From Thermoplasmata archaeon (GTDB taxonomy: Archaea; Thermoplasmatota; Penumbrarchaeia; JAEHCK01): a stretch of 64,000 nucleotides of DNA. Below are positions 8,240 to 62,763 of the stretch, piece after piece. The position numbers and the translations under genes were made by a program. Position 1 is the stretch's first letter, and every line of letters starts with the position of its first letter. The notes beneath the pieces are model-generated. The model ran no database searches and was not told the origin of the DNA. It saw only the letters and a list, made by a program, of their open reading frames with translations. The DNA is taken from contig JAEHCK010000003.1 of assembly GCA_020696345.1 (NCBI GenBank), positions 10,270 through 74,269 on the forward strand. Reading direction: 5' to 3'.

Positions 8240-8433
8240 GGTTCTTCTCCCGATTTAGGTAAAGAAGTGAAATTAAAATATTACAAATATATTCAGGGAT
8301 CAGGGGTTACAATTCAGGGGTCACAATTTAGATTTTATTTCTTTTAATTCAACATTATCCCACTAATGTCCTGACCCCAAAGTTGTGACCCCTGACTCCT
8401 AATATTGCCCAAATTCGGAGAAGAGTCAGAACC
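8240..8433. repeat. MITE-like, ~194-bp imperfect hairpin element with terminal inverted repeats and internal G-word/C-word arms
   Basis: The ends are GGTTCTTCTCCCGATTTAGG (8240-8259) and CCCAAATTCGGAGAAGAGTCAGAACC (8408-8433, approximately its reverse complement with a small indel). Internally, TCAGGGGTCACAA (8314-8326) and TTGTGACCCCTGA (8383-8395) form a perfect inverted pair. The tandem words are CAGGGA/CAGGGGTTACAATT/CAGGGGTCACAATT. Confidence 0.55.
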
Positions 8434-13394: not shown

Positions 13395-13515
13395 TGAACC
13401 ACCTGGTTTTTTTTAATTCCCTTTTGAAATAGATTTCTCATTATTAAATTGAACGATAAATATTGAATGAAATTAATGTTCATATATCTATTGAGATAAA
13501 GAATGTACTTATAAG

Positions 13516-13847
13516 TTAGGGATATGAGATGTGTACGCTTGGTGATTATCAACAAATTGTCAACGTCATTCATCACCGGGATTCGGGATTCGCACGCTAC
13601 AACGACTTTTTGATAATAACTGCTTGAGGGATTAGGGTTTTCACAATAATATGACAATCCGCCTCCCGCATTCCACATCTCAAATCCCTGACTCCTTATT
13701 AGGGATGCGAGATATGTACGCTACAAACTAAATACAATGTACATCGCTTGAGGGATGTGAGTCAATTCATTATTAATTTCCACATCCCACAAGTGGTTTA
13801 AATTATTAATGATTTATAACGTCCACATCCCAAATCCCTAATTATTT
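13516..13847. repeat. Patchwork of at least 8 degenerate ~24-nt GGGAT-word units in both orientations, in the divergent promoter region
   Basis: The units include TTAGGGATATGAGATGTGTACGCT (13516-13539), TTAGGGATGCGAGATATGTACGCT (13699-13722), GGGATTCGGGATTCGCACGCTACAAC (13577-13602) and GAGGGATGTGAG (~13751). Inverted copies are CCACATCTCAAATCCCTGA (~13672-13690), CCACATCCC (~13780) and CCACATCCCAAATCCCTAATTA (~13823-13845). Confidence 0.55.
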
Positions 13848-13941
13848 AATAATTAATTCAATTTCCATTACACTAATAATTTGAGAAAAGGCTTATAATT
13901 CAATACAAATGTTTATAACTATATTCGAGTTTTACTTGTTT

Positions 13942-14148
13942 ATGGGACAACAGGATGTATACAATTATCTTAAGGCTCATCCAAGTGATTGGTTCTCATC
14001 AAAAGAGATCAGTAAAGGAATGAACCAGTCGATCGGGTCGGTAACTGTTTGTTTAAAGAAACTAAGAAATAAAAACGAATTAAATTTTAAACCAACCGGA
14101 CTTCGGAAAGGTAAGAGAGCTCAATATTTGTATAAGTTCAAAATCTAA
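13942..14148 (+). CDS. Small winged-helix (wHTH) DNA-binding protein, putative transcription regulator
   Basis: The sequence MGQQDVYNYLKAHPSDWFSSKEISKGMNQSIGSVTVCLKKLRNKNEL has the helix-turn-helix-wing pattern of small archaeal wHTH proteins. The ORF track start at 13909 adds a hydrophobic, unlikely N-terminus. TTTATAAC lies ~25 nt upstream of ATG 13942. Confidence 0.55.
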   Translation: MGQQDVYNYLKAHPSDWFSSKEISKGMNQSIGSVTVCLKKLRNKNELNFKPTGLRKGKRAQYLYKFKI

Positions 14149-14498
14149 TGATATTGATATAATATATCATCGAAAGTGAAACCTGATGTTTTAGTTTTTT
14201 TTTATCAGTGATAACAAAATACTTAACAAACAAAATACCTGCAAATGCATTTTTTATTAATACATTGATAAAACAAGATCCACCAGACCCCTCATACTTT
14301 TAGTGCAAGGTGTTCACAGTAATAAAACTTCAAGTTGGCTTTCAAATACTACACTATTTCAATACATCAACCAATTTAAATATCCGATAATTTAATAAAT
14401 TACAACAACTATGTTGCGAGCCCTTATTCCTAATTGGAATTGCTTTAGATAAATTATTACCGATCACCTCAAAAGCTATTGCAGGGGAGGGTTAGTTC

Positions 14499-16701: not shown

Positions 16702-16835
16702 GCTAGGGAATCGTTATCGTTAATGATAAGATTTAGGGTAAATTCTATTTTTAACAAAAATATTTGGGAATAGACATTGGAGTTAAATACCAAAACAATA
16801 TTAAGGGAAAATTAGGTATTAAAGTTGTGATTTCA

Positions 16836-17627
16836 ATGGAAGAGATCAAGATCTATGAGCTAAAGAGATTAGATTTACGGGATTCGGCGGTGATTGATGG
16901 TTTCCCCAGTGTTGGTCTGGTAAGCACCATTACTGCAAATTACTTGATCGGAATATTACAATTGGAGCAGATCGGAATACTGGATTCGATTCATTTCCCA
17001 ACAGTATCGGTTGTACGTAATTCAGAACCATTGAACCCGGTTCGGATCTACGCAAAACCAAGCGTGAAAAAAAGTGAAAAACAGGTAGTGGTATTTATCT
17101 CGGAATTCCAACCACCACCAAATTTAATTAAATTGATCGCCGGAACCATTCTTGACTGGATGATGGAGCAGGGATGTAGATTATTGATATCGCCTGAAGG
17201 CTTAGTGATCGATCGCGGCGAAACTGAAAAAGAAGATGAACCCGAAGACTCGAAAGAAAATGAAGGGGCGCTGGAGTCATATGGAATAGGTAGTACGGAA
17301 AATGCACGAAAGATCCTAAAAGAATATAAAATTCAACAATTCCAGGAAGGCGTCATTTCCGGTGTGGCCGGCGTGTTATTAAATGAGGGTAAACGCCGTG
17401 AATTCGATGTGATAAGTCTACTGGCGGAAGCGCGACCAAATTACCCGGATGCACGCGCAGCTGCAAAAGTTATTGAAGCTATAGATAAGATCCTGTTACA
17501 TATAGACATCGATGTGAAACCATTATACCAAGAGGCCGAGGGTATCGAGGCACGTATTATGAGTATGCAGCAGAAGGCAAAGACGCCATCAAAAAAGAAA
17601 GCACCAATTCCACAAATGTATGGTTAA
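16836..17627 (+). CDS. PAC2/Pba-type proteasome assembly chaperone family protein
   Basis: The core VIDGFPSVGLVSTITANYLI is PAC2-family-like, and the C-terminus ends M-Y-G, a hydrophobic-Tyr-X (HbYX) tail. The ORF track begins at TTG 16764, but ATG 16836 (MEEIKIYEL) is the more likely start. Confidence 0.7.
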   Translation: MEEIKIYELKRLDLRDSAVIDGFPSVGLVSTITANYLIGILQLEQIGILDSIHFPTVSVVRNSEPLNPVRIYAKPSVKKSEKQVVVFISEFQPPPNLIKLIAGTILDWMMEQGCRLLISPEGLVIDRGETEKEDEPEDSKENEGALESYGIGSTENARKILKEYKIQQFQEGVISGVAGVLLNEGKRREFDVISLLAEARPNYPDARAAAKVIEAIDKILLHIDIDVKPLYQEAEGIEARIMSMQQKAKTPSKKKAPIPQMYG

Positions 17628-17649
17628 GTTCCACTGTTTTTTTTTGTTC

Positions 17650-17990
17650 GGATGTAATTTTGATATTTTTATGATGAGTTGTTGTCTAGATGGATTGATG
17701 CTGAGTTGTAGTCGAGATGAATTCATAATGAATCGCGATCAAGCTGAATTTATGTTGGATCGTAGTCGGGAGGAGTTGATGCTTAATCGTAATCGAGCAG
17801 GGTTGATAATGGGTTGTTGTCAGGCTAAATTTATGCTAAATTGTAATTTTCATCTTTACGATAATCCTACCCGATAACAATCCTACGATAATTCTACCAG
17901 ACTACAGTCAAGCAATAAATAATCACGATTACAGTCCAACAACAATACTACCCGACTACTATTTAGCAATAATTAGGCCTGATTACAATC
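17650..17990. repeat. Head-to-head array of degenerate 27-nt units (8 forward, ~5 inverted) filling the spacer between convergent genes
   Basis: Forward units include AGTTGTTGTCTAGATGGATTGATGCTG, AGTTGTAGTCGAGATGAATTCATAATG, GATCGTAGTCGGGAGGAGTTGATGCTT and GGTTGTTGTCAGGCTAAATTTATGCTA. Inverted units, read on the minus strand, include GATTGTAATCAGGCCTAATTATTGCTA and AATAGTAGTCGGGTAGTATTGTTGTTG. The symmetry centre is near 17850-17860. Confidence 0.7.
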
Positions 17991-17996
17991 GATAAT

Positions 17997-18650
17997 TTAA
18001 TCTTCTTTATATTCAGCAACTTCAATAATGTCATCAAGTCTAATTGCTTCTATTTTGGCAGGTTGAAACTTATTCAAATATTTTGTTAATATCTGGCTTT
18101 GGAATTGTTTTATCATAGGTTGACGGTTAGACCACCTTTGATTTAATTTATTAATTGAGCCTATTGCAGTCATATTAAAATAAGTCTCTAACATATAATT
18201 GAAGAAAACATTTCTGGCCATATTTAGATCGAGCTTATCGAAATCACCATCATTCTCGAGATATTTTTTGCCCAGATGATATGCCATCTCCTCAATATCT
18301 ACTTCATATAAGAAAAAATCTTTCTCGTTTTGTTCCACATCTCCAAATATCTCCCAAAATGGCTTTTTTAGGTTCTTATCCAGCATTAGATTAACGAAAT
18401 CTTCGATTATTGGTAAAGTATTGGCAGATAACGGCCTACTGGTTAGCATCACATCATTCAGCCCTGATATTTTGGAAGAATTTCGCAGGTCGATCTTATA
18501 CAATAGGATCAAACCGAGCCTTTTGAAAATTGCCTCCTGGAGTGGTTTGTAGAACATTTTGGATAATGTATTATTAGTAATATTCGATATATAATCCATT
18601 GCGATCTTTTCATTTTCGGGAATTTTAATAGCAAACAGTTTTGTATCCAT
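17997..18650 (-). CDS. Hypothetical protein (217 aa), no motif recognised
   Basis: This is a clean ORF with no competing frame. It is divergent from the first giant surface-protein gene. Confidence 0.5.
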   Translation of the reverse strand: MDTKLFAIKIPENEKIAMDYISNITNNTLSKMFYKPLQEAIFKRLGLILLYKIDLRNSSKISGLNDVMLTSRPLSANTLPIIEDFVNLMLDKNLKKPFWEIFGDVEQNEKDFFLYEVDIEEMAYHLGKKYLENDGDFDKLDLNMARNVFFNYMLETYFNMTAIGSINKLNQRWSNRQPMIKQFQSQILTKYLNKFQPAKIEAIRLDDIIEVAEYKED

Positions 18651-34550: not shown

Positions 34551-34628
34551 CAACAACGAATCGAACGAATTAACGAATAGACGAATATCATCTGTTTATT
34601 CGAACATTCGTGCCATTCGTTGTAAAAC
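34551..34628. repeat. AACGAAT-word tandem repeat plus its inverted complement (hairpin) immediately upstream of the GxxExxY gene
   Basis: CAACAACGAATCGAACGAATTAACGAATAGACGAATA (34551-34587) is followed by TTTATTCGAACATTCGTGCCATTCGTTGTAAAAC (34595-34628). Confidence 0.7.
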
Positions 34629-49804: not shown

Positions 49805-49890
49805 CAAAATCAGGGGTTTGGGGTCACAATTCGGGGGTCAGGCACCTTTAACTCACATACTCTTACACTCACACACTCCCAAACTTTTTC
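49805..49890. repeat. G-rich arm (ATCAGGGGTTTGGGGTCACAATTCGGGGGTCAGG) followed by a C-rich ACTCACA-word block
   Basis: GGGGTCACAATT (49820-49831) is identical to 8317-8328, and ATCAGGGGTT (49809-49818) is identical to 8299-8308. The 49841-49890 block is the inverted counterpart of the words at 43366-43405. Confidence 0.7.
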
Positions 49891-51925: not shown

Positions 51926-52020
51926 AACAGGATCCCCCCTAGGTAGGGTTTAAATTATTAATTATATGTTATCACTGAATTTTAGCACAACTATATATTG
52001 TTTTCGTATTGTATTATAAA

Positions 52021-52163
52021 TAACCAATAACCAACCAACAATAACCAAATAATTTTCAATAACCAATCACAAAATCACCAAACACGGATCAATTTACGTT
52101 TGGATAATTGAGTTTTGGAACTTGGAGCTTATTTGGTTATTGGAACTTGGTGATTGGTTATTG
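52021..52163. repeat. ~140-bp imperfect hairpin made of AACCAAT words (left arm) and TTGGAACTTGG/ATTGGTT words (right arm)
   Basis: CAATAACCAATCAC...CACCAAAC (left) pairs with GTTTGG...GGTGATTGGTTATTG (right). The right arm TTTGGAACTTGGAGCTTATTTGGTTATTGGAACTTGGT closely matches the reverse complement of 31601-31645. Confidence 0.7.
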
Positions 52164-59101: not shown

Positions 59102-59137
59102 CCATATGCAATCTGGACGCCTGTAGAGTCAAATACT
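59102..59137 (+). other. 5' strand of the 23S pre-rRNA processing stem (bulge-helix-bulge-like)
   Basis: CCATATGCAATCTG (59102-59115) pairs with CAGATTGCGTATGG (62136-62149). GTAGAGTCAAATACT (59123-59137) pairs with AGTATTGACTCTAC (62115-62128). The unpaired 7-nt segments between these helices form an internal loop. Confidence 0.7.
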
Positions 59138-62114
<2,977 letters not shown>

Positions 62115-62149
62115 AGTATTGACTCTACCGTTTGACAGATTGCGTATGG
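62115..62149 (+). other. 3' strand of the 23S pre-rRNA processing stem
   Basis: It is complementary to 59102-59137, as described for the 5' strand. Confidence 0.7.
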
Positions 62150-62189
62150 ATTTCTATATCTTATTTGCAAATAATTGATACTCAGCGTT

Positions 62190-62700
62190 AGCTATCGTTC
62201 GAAATCCGATCGCTTCGATGTGAAAATAAATTAAAACGCTTGGGGAAGGGGGATCATTACAATGAATTATTGTTGGAAAACATTTGGTGAGGGGGGATAT
62301 AATTAATATTTATGATTAGGTTATTTGAAAAGGTAAATTGAAAAATGCAAAAGTCAAAATTGTGATTATATTTTGGTATTGGGATTTTACCCACAACCCT
62401 CATATGCGCTAACTTAAGTTTTTCTGGTTCTTCCCATGATTTAGGTAGAAAGTAAAATATTAGACAGAGGGAGGAGGAAAGTGGAAAGAGGGTTGATAAT
62501 TTGACGATAAGACCCTATTTCCTCTAACGATTCATATCACCAATTCTACATAGTGTCCTCTGCCCTCTTTCCTGTTTGGGATTTTACCCACCACCCCTCC
62601 CCCAACGATCGTAAACAATAATTCATTGAAGTGATCTCCCAACGATTCCAAGCGATCATTACTTACAGTGGTCACCCCTCCCCAAACGATCTTGTTTTTT
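62190..62700. repeat. ~500-bp composite of nested inverted repeats (G-rich left half, C-rich right half) downstream of the 23S rRNA
   Basis: GGGGAAGGGGGATCATTACAATGAATTATTGTTGG (62242-62276) pairs with CCCAACGATCGTAAACAATAATTCATTGAAGTGATCTCCC (62601-62640). GAGGGAGGAGGAAAGTGGAAAGAGGG (62468-62493) pairs with TCCTCTGCCCTCTTTCC (62556-62572). TTGGGATTTTACCCAC occurs as a direct repeat at 62379 and 62576. Confidence 0.65.
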
Positions 62701-62763
62701 AAATAATCATAGTGGTCGGCCGAAGGCTTGGCCGAAGGCCTAACGGTCGGTCGATTGTATTTA

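Follow-up and report, generated by a model that had tools for sequence, protein, structure and literature searches.

Results

The window, that is, the 64-kb stretch of DNA analysed here, carries at 16764-17627 on the + strand a gene of the PAC2 (proteasome assembly chaperone) family, which probably has its true start at the ATG at 16836 and which ends with a TAA stop codon at 17625-17627. Facing it at 17997-18650 on the - strand is a gene whose stop codon lies at 17997-17999 and whose product is a clade-specific protein of 217 amino acids with no match in Pfam, NCBIfam, PHROG or PDB sequences. The chromosomal context is ordinary. The neighbourhood encodes an HhH protein, a Mut7-C RNase, a RibD_C protein, PAC2, the 217-aa protein and a CARDB surface protein. 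The scan of window ORFs turned up no transposase, Orc1/Cdc6, ParA/ParB-type or recombinase genes, and no peptide-maturation genes lie near the spacer between the two convergent genes. This spacer of 369 bp (17628-17996) is taken up entirely, as the initial annotation had claimed, by degenerate repeats of 27 nt in two opposed arms, with 7-8 units on the + strand and 4-5 on the - strand, and the ends of the array abut both stop codons. Right behind the PAC2 stop, at the outer end of the first arm (arm A), is a T9 run at 17637-17645 on the + strand. Oligo-T runs serve as terminators in archaea, and by this general rule the T9 run looks like a terminator for PAC2. Head-to-head arrays are present in several further spacers of the source genome, in which TRF finds 2.36 arrays per kb of intergenic DNA versus 0.30 per kb in genes.

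Each 27-nt unit is built as an 11+11+5 sub-repeat, and the array as a whole has a super-period of 54 nt. The A arm (17668-17856, + strand) has seven units with the consensus TTGATGCTGAGTTGTAGTCGAGCTGAA, which start at 17668, 17695, 17722, 17749, 17776, 17803 and 17830; the first six are clear and the innermost is degenerate. A further degenerate unit at 17641-17667 (+ strand; TTTTTGTTCGGATGTAATTTTGATATT) lies outermost and is identical to the innermost unit at 19 of 27 positions. Our repeat search returned seven copies at a spacing of exactly 27 nt (17641-17845 register). The B arm (17865-17972, - strand; consensus TTATTGnTGAAnTGTAGTCGGGTAGAA) has four clear units, which start at 17865, 17892, 17919 and 17946 and in which two sub-types alternate to give the 54-nt period, and a truncated outermost unit at about 17973-17996 on the - strand abuts the stop codon of the 217-aa gene. 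The A+T-rich centre at 17833-17864 forms the foldback turn, in which the two arms overlap through their innermost, degenerate units. The head-to-head layout described previously is correct, but the counts of eight forward and about five inverted units are not, since the A arm has six clear units, one degenerate unit and a weak outer one, and the B arm four clear units and a truncated outer one.

The 27-nt periodicity is far above chance expectation. The lag-27 match is 0.59 in the A arm and 0.61 in the B arm, versus maxima of 0.45 and 0.49, respectively, in 2000 shuffles scored by the best of all lags from 9 to 60, and versus a window-wide mean of 0.28 (sd 0.04). All 190-nt segments with a lag-27 score above 0.45 start within 17532-17900. 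By local alignment the A arm and the reverse complement of the B arm score 24, compared with 10.9 +/- 1.8 and a maximum of 19 in shuffles, so that the inverted arms, compared as terminal inverted repeats, are copies of one unit family. Unit against unit they are only about 55-65% alike, and the best 40-nt stretch is 75% complementary. The most conserved positions of the unit form a short core, G14-TAGTC-19, G22, T1T2 and T5G6. There is no second copy of the array within the window.

The orthologous spacer was compared in nine relatives, in which PAC2 is 83-88% identical to that of the window and 85-92% identical among themselves. Its length ranges from 16 to 636 bp. Both empty and filled sites are found, and one is inverted. 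No array is present in the spacers of L007 (16 bp), L006 (71 bp) and L047 (118 bp), the spacer of L046 (319 bp) has a 14-nt period, those of L049 (505 bp) and L009 (636 bp) have a 28-nt period, and L011 has a 27-nt-period array in which the contig ends. The centre of the L009 spacer holds a separate insert of 150 nt bounded by terminal inverted repeats. A period of 27-28 nt is usually kept in the spacers of the relatives, with unit sequences differing, and its persistence despite the turnover of units could reflect selection for an unseen function. Even in a strain from run X3, whose flanks are 96-99% identical to those of the window, the sequence diverges from 17992 inward. Over short evolutionary times arrays disappear, give way to others or are turned round, and the intergenic spacers of this lineage are largely made of fast-turning tandem and inverted repeats. 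Such repeat-rich spacers break short-read assemblies, and they may mark recombination-prone or mobile DNA. A VNTR downstream of PAC2 was also observed in L064 and L065.

L012, which was found through a metagenome scan with PAC2 and whose PAC2 is 85% identical to that of the window, is the only relative with the window's repeat family. Its orthologous spacer of 490 bp has a 27-nt period, and the array is inverted relative to the flanking genes. Aligned locally, the two arrays reach a score of 132 when one is reverse-complemented, compared with 41 when both are read in the same direction, and a position weight matrix of the unit has 16 matches in L012 and finds nothing at the other loci fetched. 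A T5 run is found at the outer end of the L012 A arm, there behind the other gene. The distinction between A and B arms persists in both genomes, which again could be due to selection for an unseen function.

Sequence resembling the array is present at a depth about 5-18 times that of the flanking genes in X1, the source run, and up to about 100 times in X2. In X1 the contig depth is 14-15 for the flanks, 83 for the A arm and 264 for the B arm; in X2 it is about 6 for the flanks and 679 for the array. Orthologous arrays of related species do not account for the excess, as they have become unrecognisable through divergence, in contrast to PAC2. Array-like sequence also lies at, or close to, the ends of contigs of genome-like depth (12.6-18.4), at least one of which continues into an unrelated flank. 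Contigs at the depth of the source genome with other flanks carry units that are at least 80% alike, and length variants differ by multiples of 27 nt (net +/-54, 81 or 108). Depth and 30-nt loose ends suggest that further arrays of the family lie scattered through the same genome or genomes. No second copy was found in the approximately 5-9 kb fetched around the locus of each relative. Pattern scans of GTDB representative genomes gave, among the matches listed, chance matches or unrelated 27-nt tandem repeats, and the family was not found in IMG/VR or in phage or plasmid collections.

Discussion

The spacer between PAC2 and the 217-aa gene is probably a lineage-restricted, multi-copy, non-coding foldback-type tandem-repeat element that occupies a promoter-free gap. 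Such an element would comprise two opposed arrays of one 27-nt family, whose A and B types occupy opposite strands, and the family would be confined to a narrow lineage of marine-sediment Thermoplasmatota, with many copies in the source community. Whole units would be gained and lost, presumably via slippage or unequal exchange, and the array sits between convergent genes, where it disturbs no promoter. Read-through RNA from either gene may fold into one long, imperfect hairpin, which would probably do no more than insulate or stabilise 3' ends, and the element itself may well be selfish or neutral. The previous suggestion of a structured or MITE-like element is thus upheld insofar as the element is real, homologous between genomes, apparently multi-copy and fast-changing, while the proposed terminator or protein-binding role is at most conjectural, and PAC2 already has its T9 run.

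Several known classes of repeats share features with this array. Foldback elements of the FB type and MITEs, which include eukaryotic foldback transposons and the MITEs of archaea and bacteria, have inverted arms built of tandem sub-repeats. The array resembles them in its long imperfect inverted arms of short tandem units with little or nothing between, in its variable unit number, in the differences in presence and orientation at the orthologous site, in the multi-copy signal and, in L009, in the central insert with its terminal inverted repeats. It differs from them in that no target-site duplication is seen, as no direct repeat flanks the array at the junctions inspected in the window and in L012, in that no cognate transposase is found among the window ORFs scanned, and in that its arms are two consistently distinct unit types and not mutual copies. 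BOX elements of Streptococcus pneumoniae and the BIME/REP sequences of enterobacteria are likewise intergenic, often at gene 3' ends, and they are modular, lineage-restricted and multi-copy, with variable tandem sub-units and a long potential RNA hairpin. However, the units of the array are non-palindromic, unlike REP units, there are no unique end modules of the boxA/boxC type, the host is an archaeon and no RAYT-type gene is seen. We reject a REP/BIME assignment, because each unit contains a direct sub-repeat of 11 nt without any internal dyad, and pairing occurs between arms only. Prokaryotic minisatellites (VNTR) share the degenerate tandem units, the whole-unit copy variants and the rapid strain turnover (cf. 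L064 and L065), but not the head-to-head double array, the two arm types, the opposite orientation between genomes or the multi-copy depth. A CRISPR array is rejected, as the units are contiguous and degenerate and have no spacers.

It is also possible, though we regard it as doubtful, that the spacer is one copy of a discrete, multi-copy archaeal foldback element of an uncultured marine-sediment Thermoplasmatota lineage, with two different arms and defined ends (at the A end the T run and GGATGTAAT), which moves or flips between the promoter-free gaps of convergent genes and whose 27/54-nt core TGTAGTCG is kept for a host or element protein or for a read-through hairpin. As far as our literature search shows, a foldback-type repeat family of this kind is undescribed in Archaea; neither archaeal foldback elements nor repeats of this sort from the lineage came up. 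Should the family prove to be multi-copy and to flip its orientation, it would join the short list of archaeal non-autonomous elements.

Another explanation would be that the array is a local minisatellite, which arose in place by slippage and inverted duplication in a spacer free to vary, and that the excess depth comes from unrelated, similar low-complexity arrays of other organisms, so that there is no mobile or dispersed family. Only one copy is present in the DNA examined from this lineage, spacers rich in repeats of many unit types are a general feature of these genomes, and neither a target-site duplication nor a transposase is seen. Nevertheless, we consider this explanation unlikely. 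The window and L012 have the same family, although the flanks of L012 are closer to those of L046 and L049, which carry different units, and the array has opposite orientations in the two genomes. Neither the similar units on contigs of source-genome depth with other flanks, nor a depth that the diverged orthologous arrays of related species cannot supply, agrees with a purely local origin.

Instead of a foldback-type element of no particular use to its host, the array might act through its RNA. The initial annotation predicted a long imperfect hairpin near 17855, and in the MFE fold the arms do pair around position ~17850, with -92.4 kcal/mol on the + strand (z -2.5) and -80.4 kcal/mol on the - strand (z -3.0); the hairpin is therefore real, but only moderately better than in shuffles. 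The + strand of L012 folds with a z of -6.6, and in both genomes the PAC2-sense strand folds about 12 kcal/mol better than the other, despite the flip of the array, which could point to selection for an unseen function. Together with the site between convergent genes, these results would fit a read-through RNA that folds into the A/B hairpin and acts as a bidirectional insulator or stabiliser of 3' ends or is processed to a non-coding RNA, or, in a variant, forms a chain of C/D-box-like K-turns. We hold such a role to be improbable. No excess folding is seen in L049, L046, L047 or L006, whose orthologous spacers have z values from -0.95 to +1.0, and the arms in the window are, as described, of limited likeness. 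Mirror-image units are no more complementary than other A/B pairs, and a recent palindromic duplication is rejected for the same reason, since mirror units show no special likeness to each other. PAC2 is followed by a T9 run of its own ahead of the array, and archaeal termination does not need hairpins. The array locus is present in no RNA run searched. The central hairpin at 17811-17883 gives a match to a miRNA precursor, which is spurious.

The C/D-box variant arises from the geometry of the units, in which 7+12+4+4 nt add up to 27, so that 27 and 54 nt correspond to half and full archaeal C/D sRNAs, and from the order AUGAUGA, 12 nt and CUGA in some units. Weak Rfam matches were obtained to sR5 (15.9 bits; threshold 40), sR49 (15.3; 50) and sR30 (11.4; 38), with E values of 0.35-3.2; these scores are far below threshold, and the number of matches is what chance predicts. 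Geometry is the sole C/D feature that fits. When the units are parsed as 3+7+12+4+1, a perfect C box (RUGAUGA) is found in one of eight window units and CUGA in one of eight, or in three of nine A-arm units of L012, so that the boxes fit only 1-4 units per arm. Moreover, the putative D-box positions are the most variable in the unit and the putative guide is the most conserved, and the 12-nt guides match the 23S rRNA in the window at best at 8-10 of 12 positions, equal to shuffled guides. The C/D-box sRNA chain therefore fails on box conservation, conservation pattern, complementarity to the 23S rRNA and scores.

Another role that can be considered is that the units are iterated binding sites of a protein, which would make the array an origin with ORB-like repeats, a site that organises the chromosome or serves as a centromere, or a polar roadblock to convergent transcription or replication. 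The conserved core of the unit and its 11-nt sub-repeat, which is close to one helical turn, would suit such sites, as would the 27-28-nt period that orthologous spacers keep while their sequence changes. The opposed polarity of the arms is like that of fork-trap or terminator arrays, and the inverted repeats enclose an A+T-rich centre. On the other hand, close relatives have spacers of 16, 71 and 118 bp without the array and L012 has it flipped, and therefore the array is not essential, nor does it matter which way it faces between the flanking genes. Throughout the window the GC skew follows gene strand, including at its minimum near 14 kb. Orc1/Cdc6, ParA/ParB-type and recombinase genes are missing from the ORFs scanned, no candidate binding protein emerged, and the neighbouring 217-aa protein has no recognisable domain. 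We thus give a protein-binding array only a small chance. In particular, a replication origin, a centromere or a recombinase-linked switch is rejected, because the relevant genes are absent among the ORFs scanned and close relatives do not have the array. Unlike archaeal origins with ORB repeats, the array is neither conserved in close relatives nor located beside orc1/cdc6.

Finally, the A arm contains an 85-codon ORF at 17620-17877 on the + strand, whose ATG overlaps the PAC2 stop via ATGGTTAA, and both the ORF and the overlap are present as first described. As one of two options it was proposed to encode a small Cys/Met nonapeptide-repeat peptide, coupled to PAC2 and reminiscent of multi-core peptide precursors. 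Apart from the open frame and the overlap, this proposal could draw on the A-arm frame of L012, which stays open over 64 codons with a comparable LMxxCSRAE repeat, and on the slightly greater variability of third codon positions among A units (entropy 1.01 versus 0.75 and 0.73). The following results speak against it. No homologue of the 85-aa product was found among 5.8 billion proteins searched as clusters, a collection that does not contain the ORF as a called gene either. A search with all open frames joined end to end gave no match at E <= 0.001, and Pfam, NCBIfam and PHROG had none. The array is inverted in L012, and therefore PAC2 there precedes only four codons and a stop (MVEY*), while the A-arm frame sits behind the other gene and contains an internal stop. 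Substitutions between the arrays of the window and L012, the comparison suggested at the outset, show no coding signal, as pN/pS in the ORF frame is 1.26 and control frames are as good. The non-coding B arm also has a slight third-position excess, and three or four other frames are equally open, reaching 49-51 codons in the window and as many as 103 in L012. The T9 run falls inside the ORF. In RiPP-like precursor genes one would see a frame conserved under purifying selection, homologous proteins and adjoining maturation or export genes, all of which are absent here. The peptide reading is thus close to refuted and very improbable, and we judge the 85-codon ORF to be a non-coding by-product of the 27-nt period. 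The frame is open because the consensus of the 27-nt (9-codon) unit has no stop in it, and the removal of this false gene illustrates that a repeat length divisible by three yields long open frames with a peptide-like periodicity. Start-stop overlaps, too, can arise free from the conserved C-terminus of a neighbour: the ATG of the ORF is the overlap of the conserved C-terminal Tyr-Gly codons of PAC2 (TAT GGT), which is lost in relatives that encode the Tyr by TAC and is kept in relatives without any array.

Anatomy and setting of the array

The spacer between the PAC2 gene (16764-17627, + strand) and the convergent gene for an unknown 217-aa protein (17997-18650, - strand) holds a genuine non-coding repeat element with solid statistical support; most likely it is one member of a multi-copy tandem-repeat family of the foldback type that is restricted to this lineage. 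All of its 369 bp, from stop codon to stop codon, consist of degenerate 27-nt units, as the initial annotation had claimed, with a self-match at lag 27 of 0.59-0.61; over all lags between 9 and 60, 2000 shuffles reached at most 0.45-0.49. The two opposed arrays described there are present, but the proposed eight forward and about five inverted units become seven A-arm units on the + strand (17668-17856), with a weaker outer unit at 17641, and four B-arm units on the - strand (17865-17972), with a truncated outer unit. The arms represent two unit types, A (TTGATGCTGAGTTGTAGTCGAGCTGAA) and B (TTATTGnTGAAnTGTAGTCGGGTAGAA), and the unit is built internally of an 11-nt direct sub-repeat, TTGATGCTGAG / TTGTAGTCGAG, plus CTGAA. 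Because the units alternate, the self-match at lag 54 is equal to or slightly stronger than that at lag 27 (0.61-0.66 versus 0.58-0.64). The long imperfect hairpin suggested near 17855 is also recovered in the predicted RNA fold of the spacer, centred near 17850 with a z of roughly -2.5 to -3.0 for both strands. Elsewhere in the 64-kb window we found neither a 27-nt period nor, by scanning with a position matrix derived from these units, a further copy of the array.

The neighbourhood of the array is ordinary chromosome of an uncultured Thermoplasmatota archaeon, with an archaeal 23S rRNA gene at 59134-62114 and a G+C content of 41% over the window. The closest named relatives of PAC2 are from Thermoplasmatota/Thermoplasmata MAGs, and 99% of the locus is present in one run only, a marine-sediment metagenome. 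Other genes in the window encode an HhH protein, a Mut7-C RNase, RibD_C, two surface proteins of more than 2000 aa, FtsZ, Spt5, L11 and PAN. The listed PAC2 ORF begins at TTG 16764; since the PAC2 proteins of relatives are 262-264 aa long and can be aligned from MEEIKIYE, ATG 16836 is the likely start. No 16S or 5S rRNA gene was detected by Rfam in the entire 64 kb, including the region 59134-62763 that spans the 23S rRNA gene, whose 649-bp downstream spacer carries a 47-nt inverted repeat (62248-62294 / 62594-62640, 77% complementary).

Copy number and turnover of the array

When contigs of the source-sample run were placed on the locus, depth was 14-15 over the flanks and rose to 83 over the A arm and 264 over the B arm, while another run with matching sequence gave about 6 over the flanks and 679 over the B arm. 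Orthologous arrays of related species are not the source of this excess, because they have diverged beyond recognition and the PAC2 genes expected to accompany them did not. In three other source-run contigs (737-3934 nt), whose depth of 12.6-18.4 resembles that of the source genome, units 80-90% alike lie at the ends or close to them, and at least one of these contigs extends into unrelated flanking sequence. At their loose ends the many short contigs continue with more units on both sides, and the joints between contigs and window differ in net length by 54, 81 or 108 nt, that is, by whole units. Contig depth over the array and the units on further contigs make it most likely that the family is multi-copy. 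It was not found among the matches listed from GTDB representative genomes, nor in IMG/VR, phage and plasmid collections.

PAC2 homologues 83-88% identical to that of the window occur in many metagenomes, and in the nine syntenic loci read the gene order RibD_C / PAC2 followed by the convergent 216-236-aa protein / CARDB protein is conserved, whereas the spacer is not. It measures 16 bp (L007/L008) or 71 bp (L006) without an array, 118 bp of A+T-rich sequence without a repeat (L047/L048), 319 bp with a 14-nt period (L046), 505 bp with a 28-nt period in both orientations (L049-51), 636 bp with a 28-nt period in both arms and a 150-nt central insert (L009/L010), and 490 bp with a 27-nt period (L012); the L011 contig terminates within an array of 27-nt period. 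Distant relatives, with PAC2 56-66% identical, have another downstream gene and a spacer that is nearly absent or filled with a tandem repeat of another type. Even a strain in a third run, both flanking genes of which are 96-99% identical, ceases to match the window at 17992, a few bases short of the stop codon of the 217-aa gene. The relatives' spacers and this strain therefore indicate very fast turnover of the spacer, with the 27-28-nt period usually kept. The array is most likely tolerated in a promoter-free gap with convergent genes on either side, and is rapidly reshaped by gain and loss of whole units, replacement and inversion.

Several minor features were observed in relatives. The central piece in L009 (5118-5268) lies exactly at the array centre, is about 150 nt long, richer in G+C, has inverted terminal ends of about 20 nt (AATCATTGGtaGGA...tCCgGCCAATGATT) and a fold z of -3.5, and matches no Rfam family and no tRNA; it resembles a small MITE or else a structured RNA of unknown kind. 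Two contigs of a more distant relative, L064 and L065, encode identical PAC2 proteins, 66% identical to that of the window; immediately behind PAC2 they have a tandem repeat of 26-nt (12+14) units (L064:3377-3566 and L065:3377-3618) whose length differs between them by 52 bp, a VNTR in the analogous position. In L060-L063 (PAC2 72% identity group) the 216-aa gene and the CARDB surface-protein gene form a block that is found on the upstream side of PAC2, in opposite orientation, a rearrangement with its breakpoint at the spacer between PAC2 and the 217-aa gene.

The unit family itself was recognized in one relative: the position matrix gave 16 matches in the L012 spacer and 0 in every other locus. 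About 305 nt of the window spacer align with the L012 spacer once the latter is reverse-complemented (score 132, against 41 in the same orientation), and the A arm, which stands behind PAC2 in the window, stands behind the other gene in L012. The L012 spacer is thus inverted as a whole. Both arm types have been retained: across the two genomes, A-A and B-B pairs of units share 17.3 and 16.9 of 27 positions and A-B pairs 15.0-15.6, and the same two sub-types alternate in both B arms. The flanking genes of L012 are nearer to those of L046 and L049, two loci with other units, than to those of the window; simple vertical descent with divergence does not explain this pattern well.

Functional and coding readings

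Mobility, an RNA role and a protein-binding role of the array are all putative. A protein-binding array, an origin or a centromere gains some support from the conservation of a short core and of the period, but the array is absent in close relatives, is independent of orientation and has no relevant gene nearby. The initial annotation had also proposed a structured DNA/RNA element, of which the non-coding repeat and a moderate hairpin stand, while a predicted RNA hairpin or a bidirectional terminator is possible, with weak support. The excess in folding, moderate in the window, is strong for the L012 + strand only (z -6.6); four other orthologous spacers show none, and the mirror units have no specific complementarity. 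The PAC2-sense strand is about 12 kcal/mol more stable in both the window (17628-17996) and L012 (3451-3940) despite the flipped array, for which selection or strand-biased C>T change may be responsible. Oligo-T runs, such as the T9 at 17637-17645, are a typical archaeal termination signal, and PAC2 already has its own T run. A chain of C/D-box sRNAs, attractive because 27 = 7+12+4+4 and because of weak Rfam matches to sR5, sR49 and sR30, was rejected: conservation is lowest at the box positions, the core that is conserved is the 'guide', shuffled 'guides' match the 23S rRNA just as well as the real ones, and the scores are far under threshold.

The 85-codon ORF (17620-17877, + strand), previously read as a possible Cys/Met repeat peptide, does exist, as does its ATGGTTAA overlap with the PAC2 stop, but as a gene it was rejected. 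It has no homologue among 5.8 billion protein clusters, and, being absent from the protein record, it was not called as a gene on any assembly that the collection covers; joining all open frames of the window and L012 arrays into one query gave no protein match either. The frame is not conserved in the homologous array, since in L012 the PAC2-overlapping ATG reads MVEY and then a stop, and the A-arm frame lies behind the other gene with an internal stop. Nor is the substitution pattern of coding type: between the A arms of the window and L012 (68.5% identical), pS is 0.26 and pN 0.33 in the ORF frame, a pN/pS of 1.26, no better than control frames. Open frames are usual in these arrays, which are crossed by other stop-free stretches, three of 49-51 codons in the window and up to 103 codons in L012. 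The start itself is T-ATG-G from the conserved Tyr-Gly codons of the PAC2 C-terminus (...QMYG*), present also in array-less relatives and absent where Tyr is TAC, and the T9 run falls inside the ORF. The ORF is an artefact of a unit period equal to nine codons.

Repeats in other spacers of the window

Repeat-bearing spacers are general in this genome, and the 27-nt array is the largest case. Tandem Repeats Finder arrays over the whole window are eightfold denser in intergenic than in genic sequence (2.36 versus 0.30 per kb), and 12 of the 18 spacers longer than 100 bp have at least one tandem repeat. Head-to-head arrays of shorter units lie in the spacers at 52019-52163, 13698-13842, 34553-34623 and 8307-8402. 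The first, between two same-strand genes, consists of 7-nt units, AATAACC x4 facing TTGGTTA x4, with 65-nt arms 71% complementary. The region 13500-13850, upstream of a small winged-helix-like ORF (~13945-14150), has GGGATG / CCACATCC motifs in both orientations, with inverted arms of 62 nt at 13698-13842. This is another break in the short-read assembly, since the PAC2-carrying contig of the source run begins near 13835. CAGGGGTCACAAT is a second dispersed intergenic motif, occurring as a tandem and inverted pair at 8300-8402 and again in a distant spacer near 49815 (49810-49840). The 789-bp spacer upstream of a 1140-aa gene contains, at 34553-34623, a 30-nt inverted repeat of ACGAAT / ATTCGT units that looks like a putative operator.
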